Shown here piece after piece: positions 8,905 to 46,943 of a DNA stretch of 64,000 nucleotides (within the stretch, counting starts at the first letter, position 1; each line of letters opens with the position of its first letter). The stretch is from NCBI GenBank assembly GCA_963708045.1, contig OY970181.1:67740-131739 (forward strand), read 5' to 3'. Source of the DNA: an uncultured bacterium. Lineage in GTDB: Bacteria; Patescibacteriota; Patescibacteriia; CAIQCM01. A program made the translations under genes and the position numbers. The notes beneath the pieces are model-generated. The model searched no databases. It saw nothing but the letters and a program-made list of their open reading frames with translations, and had not been told where the DNA came from.

Positions 8905-9185
8905 CTAAATCAGTAACGAACTCCCCCTACCCCCCCGATGGCCATCGGGGGGCTAAGACTGGTTACAGATTTCATGTCTACCAATGTGCAAAGAGAGGGC
9001 GAGGATAAAATTCTAAAATACAATCTTTTTTACAAAGACAGTGACAAAGGCACGAAAAATCTTAGGCCTCCCTTTGGTAAAAGGGAGGGTAGGGAGAGTT
9101 CTTTTTTATTACGTTAAAATTATTTACGGCGAAACGAACTCCCCCTACCCCCTCTTTTGCAAAGAGTGGGCTAAGACATTACCAG
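8905..9185. repeat. Two direct copies of the 'cgaaacgaactccccctaccccc...gggctaagac' repeat flanking a 'cctccctttggtaaaagggagggt' terminator-like hairpin
   Basis: Seen in sequence at 8910-8960 and 9125-9180. A related copy sits at 46795-46880 with the same hairpin family at 46740-46766. Confidence 0.6.
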
Positions 9186-30755: not shown

Positions 30756-30788
30756 TCTGCCCCGATAAATATCGGGGCAGATTTTTAT
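30756..30788 (+). terminator. Rho-independent terminator (ccccgat-NNNN-atcgggg class)
   Basis: tctgccccgataaatatcggggcaga + ttttt. The same loop motif recurs at 37540, 40205, 42870 and 57022. Confidence 0.75.
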
Positions 30789-32525: not shown

Positions 32526-33542
32526 CTAAACCAGCTCCCAATTAGGATCGGCTTTGGCTTTGTTCCATAAAGTAAAATCCTTTTTGGCGGCGTGAAAATA
32601 TCCTGCTGTCCCGATCATCACCGCGTTGTCGGTGGTATATTTTCGCTGCGGCAAACGCAAAGTAATGCCCGGCAATTCTTTAACGCGCGCTTCAAGCGAC
32701 ATTCGTAAAAATTCGTTGGCAATAACTCCCCCGCCCACGATAATCGTTTTGACTTTAAATTTTTTTGCGGCGCGAATCGTTTTCTCTACCAATACTTCAA
32801 CAATCGCCGCTTGCACCGACGCGGCCATATCGTTTTTTAAATTTTTAATCCCCGATTTTGCGTCGCGAACACTATAAAGCACCGCTGTTTTAAGTCCGGC
32901 AAAACTAAATTCAAAATTATCTTCGCTAAGCATTGGCCGCGGCAATTTAAACGCTTGCGGATTCCCTTTTTCCGCGGCTTTGGCAATAGCGGGACCGCCC
33001 GGATAACCAAGGCCAAGCATCTGCGCTGTTTTGTCAAAGCATTCGCCGGCAGCATCGTCGCGTGTTCGCCCGATAAGTTTATATTTTCCGTGTCCGCGGA
33101 GGAGTAAAAGCTCGGTGTGTCCGCCCGAAACAATCAACCCAAGCGCCGGAAACTGCAATTCTTCCTTTTCATTAATAAGCGAAGAATATAAATGACCTTC
33201 AATATGATTAACCCGGACAAGCGGAATATCCCAAGCGTAGGAAAGGGTTTTTGCCGTTTCCAAACCAACCATCAATGACGAAAAAAGCCCCGGCCCTCCG
33301 GTCGCGGCAATAACATCAACTTTTGGTTTTATTTTAAAATCGCCGAGAAGCGTTTTAAGAAGCGGAATAATAACGCCAACATGTTCGCGCGCCGCAATTT
33401 CTGGAACCACCCCGCCGGTTAACGCGTGAATTTTCATCTGGGTTGCAACGAGCGATTCAATTTCTTTAACGCGCCCGCCATTTCCCTCCACCAAAGCAAC
33501 CGCGGTTTCGTCACACGATGTTTCTATCCCCAAAATTCTCAT
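32526..33542 (-). CDS. tsaD: tRNA N6-adenosine threonylcarbamoyltransferase TsaD
   Basis: MRILGIETSCDETAVALV with the Kae1/TsaD metal-binding signatures. Length is 338 aa. Confidence 0.92.
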   Translation of the reverse strand: MRILGIETSCDETAVALVEGNGGRVKEIESLVATQMKIHALTGGVVPEIAAREHVGVIIPLLKTLLGDFKIKPKVDVIAATGGPGLFSSLMVGLETAKTLSYAWDIPLVRVNHIEGHLYSSLINEKEELQFPALGLIVSGGHTELLLLRGHGKYKLIGRTRDDAAGECFDKTAQMLGLGYPGGPAIAKAAEKGNPQAFKLPRPMLSEDNFEFSFAGLKTAVLYSVRDAKSGIKNLKNDMAASVQAAIVEVLVEKTIRAAKKFKVKTIIVGGGVIANEFLRMSLEARVKELPGITLRLPQRKYTTDNAVMIGTAGYFHAAKKDFTLWNKAKADPNWELV

Positions 33543-33675
33543 AATTATTATATTCTATCACAAAATTAAACCACTTAGACAGACACCCCTTTTTCTAAGT
33601 TTATCCGATCGGATAAACTTAGAAAAAAACGAGGCCCGCCCAGGATGAGCAGGGCGGGCCGAGCGAAAGCGGCGG

Positions 33676-33993
33676 CTACTTTTTGTGCGAGATTCGGTAA
33701 CGAAACTCCGCAAACCAGCCTGGAGCGATCGTGCCGATACACAAGGTAATCGGAAACACAAAGGTCCCCACAATTGACGCCGCGAGAAGGATCTTTTCGG
33801 CGCGCGATTTGGGAAGACGTTTTTCGCGCCACATTCTTACCAAGTCGTAGATGACCGAAATGACCACAACAAACACGAACAAGTACAAGACGCCGATAAT
33901 AAACTGAGAAATGAACCTTCTATGCATTTTTAGTCCTTTCCCAAAGGTACGGTTGTCACGCAAAATAATAGCTCCAGCCGCACGTTTTGTCAA
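33676..33993 (-). CDS. Small membrane protein (hypothetical)
   Basis: A 105-aa ORF with two TM helices. The start is uncertain. Confidence 0.45.
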   Translation of the reverse strand: MTKRAAGAIILRDNRTFGKGLKMHRRFISQFIIGVLYLFVFVVVISVIYDLVRMWREKRLPKSRAEKILLAASIVGTFVFPITLCIGTIAPGWFAEFRYRISHKK

Positions 33994-34080
33994 CGGACAG
34001 GACTCGGCCTAATTGCCTTTTTAAAAACGTTGATATAAGATGCGGGCAGCACATTTTATCAACTTTTTGGAGGTTTAACA

Positions 34081-34886
34081 TGCCCGACGAACATCAATTG
34101 ATGCCAATCGGCCGGGCGCGTTTAATCGCCCTCGGCAGCGAAACTGGACGACTTGGCGAACCAACAAAGATGCCTGGTCCCTCTTTCGGCATATCGGCCA
34201 CGCACTGCATACGCGGAAAAGTTCTTGCCGCCGACCCGACGTCCGTCTGCGCCCATTGCTACGCTCTCACCAACTATTATCTGACCAAAGACGAGGTCCT
34301 AATTGCGCACAAACGACGGTTTGCCGGGCTTACGCATCCAGAATGGGTGCCGGCCATGGTGGCGCTAATTTTGCACGAGACCACAAACGAGTTTGGGAAA
34401 TATTTCCGTTGGCACGACTCTGGCGACCTCCAAGGTATTTGGCACCTCTTAAACATCGTCAAGGTCTGCATAGAGACGCCGCGAGTAAGGCACTGGCTTC
34501 CGACCCACGAGCCGAACATGGTCGCTGATTATCTCAAGCTCGTCCATTACGGTGTCCACCCAGCGTTTCCGGAAAACCTCTGCCTTCGTATTAGCGCCGA
34601 CTACATTGGGAAGCCGCCAAAAAAAATCGCAGGTCTGGAAATGATCCCAACGCACACGGCGCATCGCGGACACGGAAAACAATACCGCGTTAAGGTGTCC
34701 GACCGTCTCGGCGATTCGTTTGAGTGCGACTCCTACACGCGCGCCAAAAAAAAGGGCACCGCTGGTTTTTGCGGCGACTGTCGCGCCTGTTGGAACAACC
34801 GCATAAAAAACGTTTCGTTTCCGGTTCACGGAGAAAAATGGGACAAATATCAGCTTAGGTTGTTTCCGCTGTCCCCAACCAGATAA
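34081..34886 (+). CDS. Cys-rich hypothetical protein (CX2C and CX2CX2C motifs), possibly phage-associated family
   Basis: Starts at MPDEHQLMPIG inside ORF 33987..34886. Carries CAHCYA, CGDCRAC and WHDSGD. GC is about 55%. Resemblance to a phage 'gp88-like' family is from memory and unverified. Confidence 0.55.
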
Positions 34887-34976
34887 TGAATTAACCCTCG
34901 CATACGGCCGCCCGGAAAGCGGCCGTATTAAATTTTATAAAAAATAAAGCCGCATCTTCTCCCAAAGATGCGGCGG

Positions 34977-36008
34977 CTAGAATGGAACTTCTTCCTGCTC
35001 CCCTTTGGGAAGCCAAGTTCGCGACGTTGGTTTTGGTTTCTGAATCGGTTGCTGATGAACTTCAATGGTTGAGTAGCGTCCGTTGTGCCTGACCATCCGC
35101 AAATAAGTATCTCCAATGCGCTCGGCTTGATTGGGCAAAACGTTTTCTATGGCTCTTGAAAAAATCGGACTTGGTTCGCCGATCGCTTCAAGAATCCGAT
35201 CCAAACAAAACCGCACGGGACGATGCTTTTTACCCTCACCTTTCCTCATCAACTCAGCCAAGAGCCGCACCCTTTCATGAATGAGCAGCCGGTCAATTGA
35301 CGCCTTGGCAATCGCGGCATTGTGTTGTTTCCAAAAACCATGACTAGTACGCCGCGACAACTTATAGCGTGACATTAGCAAGCCGAGGAAACGAGCCATT
35401 TTTGGAATTTTTTCCTTGGCCAGAGGAGACAGCTCCCATTCGGCCCAAAGCACGTCCGCCATTAAATACTGGTCGGTGTACGGGATTGAGAAACGAATCC
35501 CGTTCGTTACCTCAACGTACGCCCGGCGCGTTTCCACTTTTTTTCTCCGATGAGAAAAGCTCGAGACAGAGGTTAAGATTTTTCTTGGGTTTTCTGGCGT
35601 TCCACATTGCCAGTTAGCCATCCGTGCTTTGGTAAGCTCGCGGATGATCCGAAAAATCTCAGGCGCTACCGCCGTATATTGTTCCAATGTGGGCCAAAAC
35701 CATTTACGGCGCTTTGGTATTTGCCGCGATTCACCGGCGCGATAACTGCCCTTGGTTTTGTTGGCGGCCGCATAAGGACGCCCACGGCTTACGCCAACCT
35801 CAAGCAGAACTGCTTCGTTATAATTACAACCGCCAAAACTTCCCGGACCAATAACGGCAATCACTGAAAGCCCAGAGCGTCCGCGGCGATAATCCACGCG
35901 CAGTTTGTTGCGCTGATCAAGCGTAATCACGACGAGCGCGTTTTCACGAACCCGACAAACGTCGCCTTCAACAAGAAGCGCGACGCGTTTGGAATTTGTC
36001 CAAAGCAT
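34977..36008 (-). CDS. Hypothetical basic protein (343 aa), unknown function
   Basis: A long ORF rich in Arg/Lys. No HUH, DDE, tyrosine/serine-recombinase or RuvC motif was found by eye. Confidence 0.55.
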   Translation of the reverse strand: MLWTNSKRVALLVEGDVCRVRENALVVITLDQRNKLRVDYRRGRSGLSVIAVIGPGSFGGCNYNEAVLLEVGVSRGRPYAAANKTKGSYRAGESRQIPKRRKWFWPTLEQYTAVAPEIFRIIRELTKARMANWQCGTPENPRKILTSVSSFSHRRKKVETRRAYVEVTNGIRFSIPYTDQYLMADVLWAEWELSPLAKEKIPKMARFLGLLMSRYKLSRRTSHGFWKQHNAAIAKASIDRLLIHERVRLLAELMRKGEGKKHRPVRFCLDRILEAIGEPSPIFSRAIENVLPNQAERIGDTYLRMVRHNGRYSTIEVHQQPIQKPKPTSRTWLPKGEQEEVPF

Positions 36009-36078
36009 TTAGAGCCTCCTTGTTGAAATTGGTTTAAAAATTCAAAGACCTGCCCTATTCTTCTCAAAAAAAACGACA

Positions 36079-36108
36079 AAAGTCAACACCTTGACAAAAA
36101 GACCGTTT
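36079..36108 (+). promoter_or_regulatory. Sigma70-like promoter TTGACA -17- TTAGAT upstream of 36144 gene
   Basis: ttgacaaaaagaccgttttgcggttagat, followed by RBS aggagg and ATG. Confidence 0.5.
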
Positions 36109-36143
36109 TGCGGTTAGATAGCAAGTTAGAAAGGAGGATGTCA

Positions 36144-36524
36144 ATGAGATACCACCGCCGGACGCGTATCTTATGCGTCCTCTTCTCAACCGTGCTCACC
36201 GCTCTTTCTGTGTTATTTTTCTTGTTCAGTTATACTACTGGGGCAATCGTTTGCGCGATCATTCCGAATATATTCGTTGCTTACTTTATGTGGATTACCT
36301 TTTCCACATATCGGGAAGCACAGGCTCTAAAAAACGAGTCTGAAAAACGCATCGCTGAAGCCGATGAAGTGACGCAGGCAGCGCTTCGTTCTAGCGCAAC
36401 CTTCCGACTATTGGCCGAGGAACTTCGTCGGGGGAAAAAAGAAACCCACGGACAAGAAACAACACCGCGCCCGCGTCAAGAAACAAAAAAACGTGGGCCT
36501 GGTCAAAACCGCTATGAGAACTAA
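36144..36524 (+). CDS. Small membrane protein (hypothetical)
   Basis: RBS aggagg lies 8 nt before ATG 36144. Two TM helices are followed by a charged tail. Confidence 0.5.
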   Translation: MRYHRRTRILCVLFSTVLTALSVLFFLFSYTTGAIVCAIIPNIFVAYFMWITFSTYREAQALKNESEKRIAEADEVTQAALRSSATFRLLAEELRRGKKETHGQETTPRPRQETKKRGPGQNRYEN

Positions 36525-36680
36525 AACGCGACACCTTTTCGGGGGTGTCGCGTTAAACTTTTTATAGACAAAATTATCGGCGCGTATTGACAAAATTGTA
36601 TTTAAGCGTATTTTACAGTCAAACGAGATCATTTAAAAAAAATCCGTTTGAGCAGGGTACCGCAAGCAAAGGGGGAAGGT

Positions 36681-37067
36681 ATGATTCACGAAGAACATCC
36701 GACCAAAGTTTTGTTCATAGATGAAACAAATGAGCGCGACGGGTCAGATCACCACATCTACAAAGCCGTTCCTTTTGACGCCGATCGCGACGCGCATTTA
36801 GCAAACAAGTTTCTCTACTGGCCAGCATCGGCTTTGTCTAATGGCCAAGCGATCCTCGCCGTCGGCTCATGCGCTAAATCACTCATGAGTCATCCGTTTC
36901 TTCTAGACAGACTCATTCGCCTTGCTATTATTAAGGAGGGGCAAATACCAACTGCCGCCGGGGATTTTAGAGACGGCAAGATCGCGAGTTGGGAAAGCAC
37001 TTGCTTTGAGATTGAGACGCCATGCGAACTAATGCCCGTGATTACCGAAGCACTTGGCCTTGGCTAA
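36681..37067 (+). CDS. Hypothetical protein (about 128 aa)
   Basis: ORF with a promoter-like TTGACA at 36587 and no recognisable family. Confidence 0.45.
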   Translation: MIHEEHPTKVLFIDETNERDGSDHHIYKAVPFDADRDAHLANKFLYWPASALSNGQAILAVGSCAKSLMSHPFLLDRLIRLAIIKEGQIPTAAGDFRDGKIASWESTCFEIETPCELMPVITEALGLG

Positions 37068-37102
37068 ACCAGAGATTCAAAACCCAGACAGGGAGTACTC
37101 AG

Positions 37103-37456
37103 ATGAAACTAGACGATGAAACCTTTGTGCCGTTTATCGGTGGACAGCTTGAAGCCCAAGATCACCGAGGACAATCACTCAAGCGCGGCGAAATTGCGGC
37201 GGTTAATATGACGGGAGATTTGGTCGCAGTAATCTTCAGCCAGTGCGTCCGAATGGAAAACGGGAAGTGGGTTCGCGAACAAAATCTTGTTCATTGTATT
37301 CACACCAACCTTTGCGACGCGAGCGTGATTCCTGGCAGGCGGCTCCTAATTCAACTAACGTCCACAACGGTCAAAACGGCTTCGCACTCAAGCATCTTCT
37401 ATCCCAAGGACTCCGCAATGGGACTGTTTGATTTCAGCTCCGTCGTGGCGTCCTAG
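37103..37456 (+). CDS. Hypothetical protein (117 aa)
   Basis: RBS gggag precedes ATG 37103. The gene is followed by terminator 37540-37575. Confidence 0.45.
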   Translation: MKLDDETFVPFIGGQLEAQDHRGQSLKRGEIAAVNMTGDLVAVIFSQCVRMENGKWVREQNLVHCIHTNLCDASVIPGRRLLIQLTSTTVKTASHSSIFYPKDSAMGLFDFSSVVAS

Positions 37457-37601
37457 TAACCAAGCGCACTCGTGTCTGCCTAACGCAGACGCGACAAAGA
37501 GCACGCTCTTTGCCACCGAGCGCGCTTTTTGTTTTAAACAAATCCCACCCCGATATATATCGGGGTGGGATTTGTTTATTATTTGTTTGCGATTTTATTT
37601 T

Positions 37602-38465
37602 TTACCAGCCTATCTTTGTTTTGTCGTCTTCGTTTGAGGCAATATTTTTAGGCATATTCCTCGCGATATATTTTTGTGATTCATTAAGCTGCGCTTCTTT
37701 TGTTTTTATTTTTTTTGCATTGTCCTTGAGCAAAGACGCAATTACGGCTAATGATTTATCAAGGTCGGCCATTTCGTCGCTGCCTATTTTTATATTTTCG
37801 TCATAATTACCTTCACCGATTTTCTTAATGGATTCGGTTAAACGCTGCATAGGCTCAACCATTTTATTTGCACAAAAACGCGCGTATAAAAAGCTTCCCA
37901 AAACCGCCGCTAAGCACAAAATTAAACCAACCATCTCACTCCAAAATTTTGTTTTTTTAATATCGGCTTGCGCGGTTTCCACGCTTTCTAATTCTTTGAG
38001 GAGCAAGGTGCCGGTATTTTCCCTGACAAAATTATTATCTTGCGCCGCTTTTAAGTAGTAGGAGGTAACTTCGGAAAAATTACCGGCGGAAATATTTTCA
38101 ACGCCACTATTTACTTCGCTAATCACTAGATTAATTGTATTCTTTACGCCCAAATAAACCGTCCAACTAGCGCCATCAGCCAAACTCTTGTCCAATTTTC
38201 CCAAAAGCGTTTGCAGTTTACTTAGGTTGCCCTGAAAAGCCAATACCCTTTCCCGATCGTTGCTGTACTGGATTAAATCGTAAAACGAATTAACCACATC
38301 GGTCGTGTCTTTGCTTAATTGGTATTCCGAAACCATATTATCCGTAATCCGCTGATATTTGTCGGTTACAATAAAGTGGGTGACGACAAAAAATATCTCG
38401 GAGATAAGCAAAAATGAGATTACGGTTAAAAACGCTTTTATGATTTTCTTTTTCATGATCTGCAC
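37602..38465 (-). CDS. Membrane sensor-like protein with periplasmic domain and HAMP domain but no output domain
   Basis: TM1, a periplasmic segment of about 170 aa, TM2, then a HAMP-like MVEPMQRLTESIKKIGEGNYDENIKIGSDEMADL. The protein ends about 50 aa later. Confidence 0.6.
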   Translation of the reverse strand: MQIMKKKIIKAFLTVISFLLISEIFFVVTHFIVTDKYQRITDNMVSEYQLSKDTTDVVNSFYDLIQYSNDRERVLAFQGNLSKLQTLLGKLDKSLADGASWTVYLGVKNTINLVISEVNSGVENISAGNFSEVTSYYLKAAQDNNFVRENTGTLLLKELESVETAQADIKKTKFWSEMVGLILCLAAVLGSFLYARFCANKMVEPMQRLTESIKKIGEGNYDENIKIGSDEMADLDKSLAVIASLLKDNAKKIKTKEAQLNESQKYIARNMPKNIASNEDDKTKIGW

Positions 38466-38476
38466 GAAGAGAGAGT

Positions 38477-39523
38477 TTATTTTGACGGTTGGTTGAAAAT
38501 AGCGCTATAGCTTTGGAAGCCGTCTTTTACGACCGTGGCCATTATATTGTCTTTATTCACAATAATCGGGTCAAGTAAAAACGAAGGAACGTCAATTTTC
38601 CCATTGTTCACAATGTTGTTTGTTTGCGGCGTTTCTCCTTTGGCCAAGGCGACAGCCATTTCCGCCGCCTTGTTGGCCAAAGACTTAATCGGCTTATAAA
38701 CCGTAGCTGTCTGTGTGCCGGCAATAATTCTTTGGCAAGCGGCCAAATCGGCATCCTGTCCAGAAACCGGAATTTTTCCAGCCAAGCCTTTTTCTTGCAA
38801 AGCTTTGATTACACCGTAAGCCATTCCGTCGTTGGCCGAAACAACAGCGTCCAACGTTTTTCCTGTGGCCAGATAATTCTTAATGGTTTGATAAGCCTCG
38901 GTTGGATCCCAGTTATTCATAAACTTATCAATCACCAATTTTATCTCGCCGCTTTTAATTTTTGCGTCCAAAACAGCCATAGAACCTTGTTTAACCAAGT
39001 AGGCGTTATTGTCCGATGGCGAGCCGCCGATGTAGGCAAAATTTCCTTTGGCTACTTTTCCAAAAACGCTTTGCGCTTCTAATTTACCGACCTGAACATT
39101 GTCAAAAGACACATACAAATCCAAATCGCTATTTTTAATCATTCGGTCGTAGGCAATAACTTTTGCGCCCGCGGCATGGGCTTCTTCTACAACTGGACCT
39201 AATTTTTCCGAATCAGCAGGCACGACAACGATTACTTTGACTCCTTGGCTGATCAAATTTTTAATTTGATTAATTTGCGCTTCCGCGTTGTTTGAAGAAA
39301 CCTCGTTGACTACTCCGCCAAGCGCAGTAACTTGTTCTTTAAACAATGCCGTATCTGTCATCCATCGTTCTTCCAAAGTACTGCCTAAAGAAAAACCAAT
39401 AATGATCGGCGCCGCTTTTTTGGCGGTGTCACCAGATCCTTTTAATAAGATTGTCCGACTGACCCAGAAAGCACCGCCCGCGACAACGACGAGCAAAACT
39501 AAAATCGCAATGATTCTTTTCAT
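38477..39523 (-). CDS. Periplasmic sugar-binding protein (type I PBP, ribose/xylose-binding family)
   Basis: Signal/TM peptide, then a type I periplasmic-binding fold pattern (VKVIVVVPADSE ... AYDR ... DAVVSANDGMAYGVIKAL). Confidence 0.7.
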   Translation of the reverse strand: MKRIIAILVLLVVVAGGAFWVSRTILLKGSGDTAKKAAPIIIGFSLGSTLEERWMTDTALFKEQVTALGGVVNEVSSNNAEAQINQIKNLISQGVKVIVVVPADSEKLGPVVEEAHAAGAKVIAYDRMIKNSDLDLYVSFDNVQVGKLEAQSVFGKVAKGNFAYIGGSPSDNNAYLVKQGSMAVLDAKIKSGEIKLVIDKFMNNWDPTEAYQTIKNYLATGKTLDAVVSANDGMAYGVIKALQEKGLAGKIPVSGQDADLAACQRIIAGTQTATVYKPIKSLANKAAEMAVALAKGETPQTNNIVNNGKIDVPSFLLDPIIVNKDNIMATVVKDGFQSYSAIFNQPSK

Positions 39524-40201: not shown

Positions 40202-40329
40202 AAATACCGCCCCGATGGCCATCGGGGCGGTATTTTTATAATCTTGGGAACCGATAGTTGACCAGAAGAGGGTTTTCTGTTATGTTGTTCTGAACAAAAT
40301 CGCCAGTAACGATTTTGGGGGAGGAACAA

Positions 40330-46680: not shown

Positions 46681-46943
46681 ATTTACATATCATAACACTT
46701 TGAACCAAATTTTCATTATTGATAAAAAAAATTGACTAGCCCCTCCCTTTGGTAAAAGGGAGGGTGCCCGAAAGGGCGGGAGGGTTCTGTTTTGTTACGT
46801 TAGGACGAAACAAACTCCCCGCCTCGTTGGCGGACAAGCCCCTACCCCCCGATGGACATCGGGGGGGGTAAGACAATTCCAAAATACTTAAACAAAAACA
46901 TCCCTCACTTGTATAAAGTGAGGGATGTTTTTTAAATTTTAAA

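Follow-up and report, generated by a model that had tools for sequence, protein, structure and literature searches.

A lineage-conserved gene cluster with a GP88-type protein beside tsaD in a Saccharibacteria chromosome

The 64,000-nucleotide stretch of DNA analysed here (the window; positions 67,740 to 131,739 of contig OY970181.1, assembly GCA_963708045.1, from an uncultured bacterium of the Patescibacteriota) carries a block of six genes, g0 to g5, between tsaD and a gene for a HAMP-domain protein. An earlier note on this DNA had regarded the block as a candidate integrated element or novel module. We are highly confident that it is not a mobile island and that it is a lineage-conserved cluster. 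The best explanation is a vertically inherited, lineage-specific cluster of the chromosome of Saccharibacteria (Patescibacteria, candidate phyla radiation or CPR), whose genes are transcribed separately. Two of its genes, g1 and g2, are convergent neighbours in several lineages; the first encodes a member of the Pfam family GP88 (PF17338) and the second a protein that is very basic and belongs to an undescribed family. That this lineage-conserved cluster acts in DNA transactions through g1 and g2 as its core is, taken as one overall statement, a tentative reading that falls somewhat short of being probable, and the functional coupling of the two genes is suggested with much less confidence than the absence of mobility. 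As a genomic island the segment is ordinary and that view of it is largely refuted; the remaining interest lies in two uncharacterised families.

Conservation of the cluster and the question of insertion

The closest relative found, locus L098, has a tsaD gene product 84% identical to that of the window, and directly beside it lie homologues of g0 (38% identity), g1 (65%), g2 (57%) and g3 (26%), with a weak match to g4 (E 5e-4) in the same tsaD-adjacent cluster. The earlier note had named the recurrence of the gene set at the same position in distantly related members of the lineage as the observation that would count against an insertion. Such recurrence is seen in L098, at shallow phylogenetic depth only; the more distant tsaD relatives from metagenomes, at 51-54% identity, have no synteny left and therefore say nothing about an empty site. 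No relative with an empty site between tsaD and the HAMP gene was found. A further locus, L009, carries homologues of g0 to g4 in the order of the window, with 49% identity for g0 and 52% for g4. The cluster of L098 has two lineage-specific insertions, and unrelated genes are inserted within the cluster in L009 too. In both loci the g0 homologue adjoins GP88 and the g3 homologue adjoins g2, and g0, g3 and g4 accompany the g1/g2 pair in the closest lineages.

The pair itself is more widely conserved. At least six lineages (the window, L098, L009, L001-L003, L004-L006 and L010-L011) have GP88 and g2 side by side in convergent orientation, with identities across the paired loci of 42-57% for g2 and 52-68% for GP88. 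The flanks of the paired loci vary, with tsaD in two of them and NTP-transferase, Bax1-I or Wzy genes, accompanied by local rearrangements, elsewhere. The source contig is 1.19 Mb long, and typical CPR features, such as arrays of type IV secretion system (T4SS) pilin genes, are present on the related contigs. The idea of a novel module finds partial support here, both in a convergent pair that is kept while its flanks differ and in the undescribed family to which g2 belongs.

The composition of the segment is ordinary. Its GC content, given earlier as about 55%, was overstated: 33990-37580 has 49.7% against 46.2% for the window (standard deviation 1.5% for windows of that size), values equally high occur at 58.6 kb and 21.7 kb of the window, and only g1 attains about 54%. 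The z-scores for gene GC and for GC at third codon positions (GC3) do not exceed 1.7, the tetranucleotide distance to the window has z between -0.15 and 1.2, and the codon usage of the cluster genes is unremarkable; on these values the idea that the segment is compositionally foreign was rejected. In Pfam, PHROGs and NCBIfam none of the six proteins matched a phage structural family or an integrase or recombinase, and there is no tRNA gene near the cluster, the nearest being about 10 kb or more away. The island DNA gave no match to phage records, nor did GP88 (g1) or g2 match plasmid records.

A check for direct repeats at the ends of the segment, which the earlier note had proposed, yielded no convincing attachment (att) sites. 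The sole candidate is an exact 15-nt direct repeat, CACAAAATTAAACCA, at 33559-33573 in the tsaD promoter region and at 37915-37929 inside the HAMP gene. It was rejected as a pair of att sites, since about 4% of Markov simulations yield a repeat of this kind, which makes chance a probable origin, and the right copy lies within the HAMP gene. The segment is like genomic islands and integrative elements in being an unannotated gene block set between housekeeping operons, in its slightly raised GC and in the single phage-type gene that it contains, but it differs from them in having no integrase, att site or tRNA, in its native composition and in a position that is conserved in a relative. The proposal of an inserted mobile element is thus not supported, the same site being occupied in L098.

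In the public Logan assembly ERR12035931 the island forms a separate contig of 3967 bp (window positions 33598-37564), and the adjacent tsaD contig ends at about 33619. A free circular element was considered for this contig and rejected, as all contig ends fall within the palindromes at 33590-33627 and 37535-37578. Because every break lies inside a perfect palindrome, the 3967-bp contig is an artefact of de Bruijn assembly that mimics an excised element.

The GP88 and g2 families

The Cys-rich protein with a WHDSGD motif noticed earlier is g1, of 268 residues. The statement that the genes match no housekeeping families holds; g1 nevertheless clearly falls in Pfam GP88 (E 1e-18; 68.5 bits, cutoff 24.4), and 58 of its 58 aligned homologues also match this family. 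Seven Cys residues of g1, arranged as C43-x13-C57-x2-C60 and C216...C231-x2-C234-x2-C237, are invariant in these 58 sequences, together with W111, D113, G115 and D116. The spacing of the N-terminal C-x13-C-x2-C site is fixed, and that of the C-terminal site follows C-x(8-16)-C-x2-C-x2-C. The motifs FRWHDSGD and WLPTxE are also conserved in the family. With all seven invariant Cys and both motifs, g1 resembles the other members of PF17338 (phrog_1392); it differs from them in its cellular sub-clade (52-68% identity), which has short extensions at both the N- and the C-terminus, the phage members being at most about 43% identical.

GP88 is largely a phage family, with at least 572 confirmed matches in viral contigs of IMG/VR and members in 16 GenBank phages, where the protein is annotated as hypothetical throughout. 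In phages its gene is located either in the early or replication region, near genes for nucleotide hydrolases and for primase, helicase and polymerase, or at the end of the genome, where it adjoins the terminase genes. No literature on PF17338 or 'gene product 88' was found, and the family has no assigned function. In 17-18 of the 80 viral loci (L018-L097), GP88 is directly followed by a protein of about 130 residues with the pattern GtPDL...VELK, which is PD-(D/E)xK nuclease-like (for example L044 9234-9692) and for which no Pfam match was found.

The structure predicted for g1 is a confident model and may be read as a radical-SAM-like (S-adenosylmethionine) partial TIM barrel. Because of this model, the invariant C-x13-C-x2-C and four-Cys sites and weak matches to DUF5131 (3 of 58 members, best E 0.031), GP88 may be regarded as a putative, divergent radical-SAM-like Fe-S enzyme. 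DUF5131 (Gp37Gp68) is listed as a subgroup of the radical SAM superfamily adjoining spore photoproduct lyase (PMC9477430). The N-terminal site resembles the extended CX14CX2C motif of QueE, which is accepted as a radical SAM enzyme (PMC4389238). DUF7227 is matched by 16 of the 58 members (best E 5e-5). At the level of sequence profiles, the DUF7227 and DUF5131 matches suggest an unrecognised clan that would join GP88 and both of them to the radical SAM superfamily. A phage family of at least 572 loci would in this way receive a concrete assignment, as a radical-SAM-like protein with C-x13-C-x2-C and an auxiliary four-Cys site, encoded in replication modules.

The 343-residue basic protein of the earlier note is g2, which has an isoelectric point (pI) of 10.4 and a net charge of +29, the mean of the family being about +22. 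Nine close homologues were found, and a profile search extends the family to 339 cluster representatives at 50% identity, nearly all of 310-350 residues. In a scan with a narrower alignment, all five matches in named genomes (5/5) are metagenome-assembled genomes of Candidatus Saccharibacteria; the source genome was not among them. No Pfam match was found in 101 members scanned, nor in ten longer members, and sequence and profile searches of PDB with g2 were equally negative. The AlphaFold2 (AF2) model of g2 has a pLDDT of 84.9, with values below 50 for residues 331-343. This C-terminus, a linker modelled with low confidence and the ending GEQEEVPF, is probably disordered. Sixty-one of 150 full-length members (41%) end in (D/E)(D/E)(V/I/C/L)PF, and the mean charge in the family is -2.4 for the tail and +22 for the body.

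The C-terminal tip DDDIPF of SSB (a protein that binds single-stranded DNA) docks many genome-maintenance proteins (PMC5872125, PMC3632105), and a canonical viral SSB in the loci analysed ends in DDEIPF. The likeness of g2 to bacterial SSB consists in a low-confidence, probably flexible linker and an acidic tip ending in EEVPF. It differs from SSB in that its body is not an OB fold, in having no SSB match in Pfam or by structure, and in its 343 residues and charge of +29.

Relatives of g2 that are not next to GP88 adjoin ftsEX/truB, or a gene for a 459-residue protein and rpoB, and these contexts are conserved by sub-lineage. Phage records and plasmid records gave no match to g2, and neither did IMG/VR in a pattern scan that detects close relatives only. 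Because its chromosomal contexts are conserved by sub-lineage and these searches were negative, g2 is a chromosomal family, so far of Saccharibacteria only, and not mobile-element cargo. In three Saccharibacteria contigs a protein of about 380-460 residues lies beside a g2 relative of this kind (L012 8537-9916, L013 1426-2568 and L016 3215-4450); the L012 copy has no precomputed Pfam match. This neighbour is conserved in these contigs and may work together with the g2 proteins. As it stands, g2 represents a common, very basic and unannotated Saccharibacteria family of about 330 residues, with no fold match and an SSB-type C-terminal tip. If it truly engages the SSB interactome, it would be a lineage-specific player in the genome maintenance of organisms with minimal genomes.

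A possible role of the pair and its alternatives

In the mechanism that we propose, the convergent g1/g2 pair would be the core of the cluster, with g1 as a domesticated phage-type GP88 protein. Its C-x13-C-x2-C site would hold a catalytic [4Fe-4S] cluster, the SGD motif would stand in for GGE, and the four C-terminal Cys would provide a second metal site. The positively charged body of g2 would bind nucleic acid, and its SSB-like tip could either plug into the partner network of SSB or auto-regulate the protein's own binding. In the same process, which may be repair, modification or replication restart, GP88 would act on DNA or a nucleotide by Fe-S or radical chemistry. The simplest history would be that the ancestor of one Saccharibacteria clade captured a phage GP88 once, beside g2, and that the pair was inherited vertically from then on.

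A number of observations weigh against this mechanism. The only ground for linking g1 and g2 in function is an adjacency that is conserved in one clade, possibly by shared descent, and the two genes are convergent with promoters and terminators of their own. Most g2 relatives occur without GP88, and close relatives of GP88 (54-58% identity) are found without g2 on one cellular contig, not CPR-like in appearance, and on one phage-like contig. The synteny of the cluster with tsaD is seen in L098 alone. GP88 differs from the radical SAM superfamily in that neither g1 nor the 58 members match the Pfam profile Radical_SAM (PF04055). A fold search with the g2 model gave no match, identifying neither an OB fold nor another recognisable DNA-binding fold, and of the six g2 proteins linked to GP88, three have no PF tip. 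A bolder version, in which g2 would be a new fold class serving as a Saccharibacteria-only nucleic-acid hub with an SSB docking peptide, GP88 would be a phage-borne radical SAM branch acting on DNA, and both would be coupled in one clade for DNA repair or modification, is improbable.

The cluster may also be no module, its genes being unrelated, lineage-specific and neighbours by shared descent alone, each acting independently; we consider this rather unlikely, though to be taken seriously. Promoter-like and terminator-like sites for each gene, the convergence of g1 and g2, the occurrence of either family without the other, and the unrelated genes inserted within the cluster in L009 and L098 are all as expected of such independent neighbours. 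What counts against it is the persistence of the g1/g2 adjacency, which outlasts rearrangements that move Bax1-I and change both flanks (L001, L010 and the window compared) and which holds down to 42-52% identity.

It is very doubtful that the segment is a degraded prophage or integrated element, in which GP88 and holin-like two-transmembrane proteins would be all that is left of a phage that had entered between tsaD and the HAMP/sugar-binding operon. Phages are the typical carriers of GP88, one of its close relatives is on a phage-like contig, and g0 would resemble a class-II holin in size and topology; the GC content 3.5 points above the window mean and the exact 15-nt repeat at 33559 and 37915 also agree with an insertion. 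However, neither an integrase or recombinase gene nor a tRNA or phage structural gene is present, the composition is ordinary, and the repeat has the chance expectation and the intragenic right copy described above. The largest gene, g2, belongs to a Saccharibacteria family that is chromosomal and for which the phage collections searched gave no match, and the IMG/VR pattern scan found no close relatives of g4 and g5. The L098 site is occupied beside a tsaD that is 84% identical, while its cluster proteins have diverged to 26-65% identity, and therefore any insertion would be old.

An anti-phage defence module, with GP88 as a viperin-like radical SAM protein, g2 as a nucleic-acid sensor and g0 and g3 as two-transmembrane membrane-disrupting effectors, is the least credible of these alternatives and quite improbable: a weak SLATT_1 match of g3 and small neighbour genes that differ among lineages favour it, but PADLOC with E-values up to 1 gave nothing meaningful for the six proteins (the sole row being g0 against ZorA, E 0.096, 9.5 bits), the g3 score is far under its cutoff, GP88 is mostly phage-borne and in replication modules, not in defence islands, and the genes are not an operon.

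Layout of the cluster and its smaller genes

The features of the cluster are collected in Table 1. The six gene calls agree with independent public gene calls. All five open reading frames previously reported within 33990-37580 are present (g1-g5), but a sixth gene of the same cluster, g0, had been overlooked, and with it the cluster begins near 33590 and not at 33990. The flanks were correctly named as tsaD on one side and HAMP and sugar-binding genes on the other.

Table 1. Features of the cluster and its flanks (window coordinates)
Feature	Position	Strand	Remarks
tsaD, left flank	32526-33542	-	Pfam TsaD; then TsaE and TrmB
38-nt perfect palindrome	33590-33627		Left boundary of the cluster, between tsaD promoter and g0 terminator
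Terminator-like hairpin	33635-33653	-	3' of g0
g0, 83 aa	33676-33927	-	Gene call; two hydrophobic segments, two transmembrane helices
g0 promoter-like site	33965-33993	-	TTGACA-17-TATTAT, 11/12 matches
g1, 268 aa	34080-34886	+	Pfam GP88 (PF17338); Cys-rich, WHDSGD
Terminator-like hairpin	34902-34928	+	After g1
Terminator-like hairpin	34949-34974	-	After g2
g2, 343 aa	34977-36008	-	Very basic, pI 10.4; undescribed family
g3 promoter-like site	36091-36120	+	Read from sequence: TTGACA, 17-18 nt, TTAGAT/TAGATA; then AAAGGAGG ribosome-binding site
g3, 126 aa	36144-36524	+	Two transmembrane helices and charged helical tail
Terminator-like hairpin	36525-36554		Between g3 and g4
g4 promoter-like site	36587-36614	+	TTGACA-16-TATTTT
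g4, 128 aa	36681-37067	+	Soluble, no family
g5, 117 aa	37103-37456	+	Soluble, no homologue found
44-nt perfect palindrome	37535-37578		Right boundary of the cluster; terminator-like hairpin with the core CCCCGAT-ATAT-ATCGGGG
HAMP-domain protein and Peripla_BP_4 sugar-binding protein, right flank	37602-39523	-

Each gene or gene pair of the cluster has separate promoter-like and terminator-like sites, and g1 and g2 meet at two back-to-back hairpins. The site of g0 is the best promoter match of the region. The TTGACA -35 boxes and good ribosome-binding sites attributed earlier to two small-protein genes belong to g3 (36091) and g4 (36587).

Searches with the smaller proteins gave little. The match of g3 to the two-transmembrane effector profile SLATT_1 is weak and sub-threshold (16.6 bits, cutoff 41; E 0.0056). 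For g5 no homologue was found in any search, including L009 and the IMG/VR pattern scan. Next to GP88 in L098 (5339-5605) and in L004 (9816-10085), and absent from the window, are similar signal-peptide proteins of 88-89 residues that end in INF.

The segment ends, as first described, in the standard CCCCGAT terminator. The perfect hairpin core CCCCGAT-(ATAT)-ATCGGGG is found five times in the window, at 8933-8950, 30760-30777, 37548-37565, 40210-40227 and 46847-46864, and therefore the hairpin is apparently a shared intrinsic-terminator motif of a genome-wide type. The 7-mer CCCCGAT is observed 16 times in the window against 7.6 expected.

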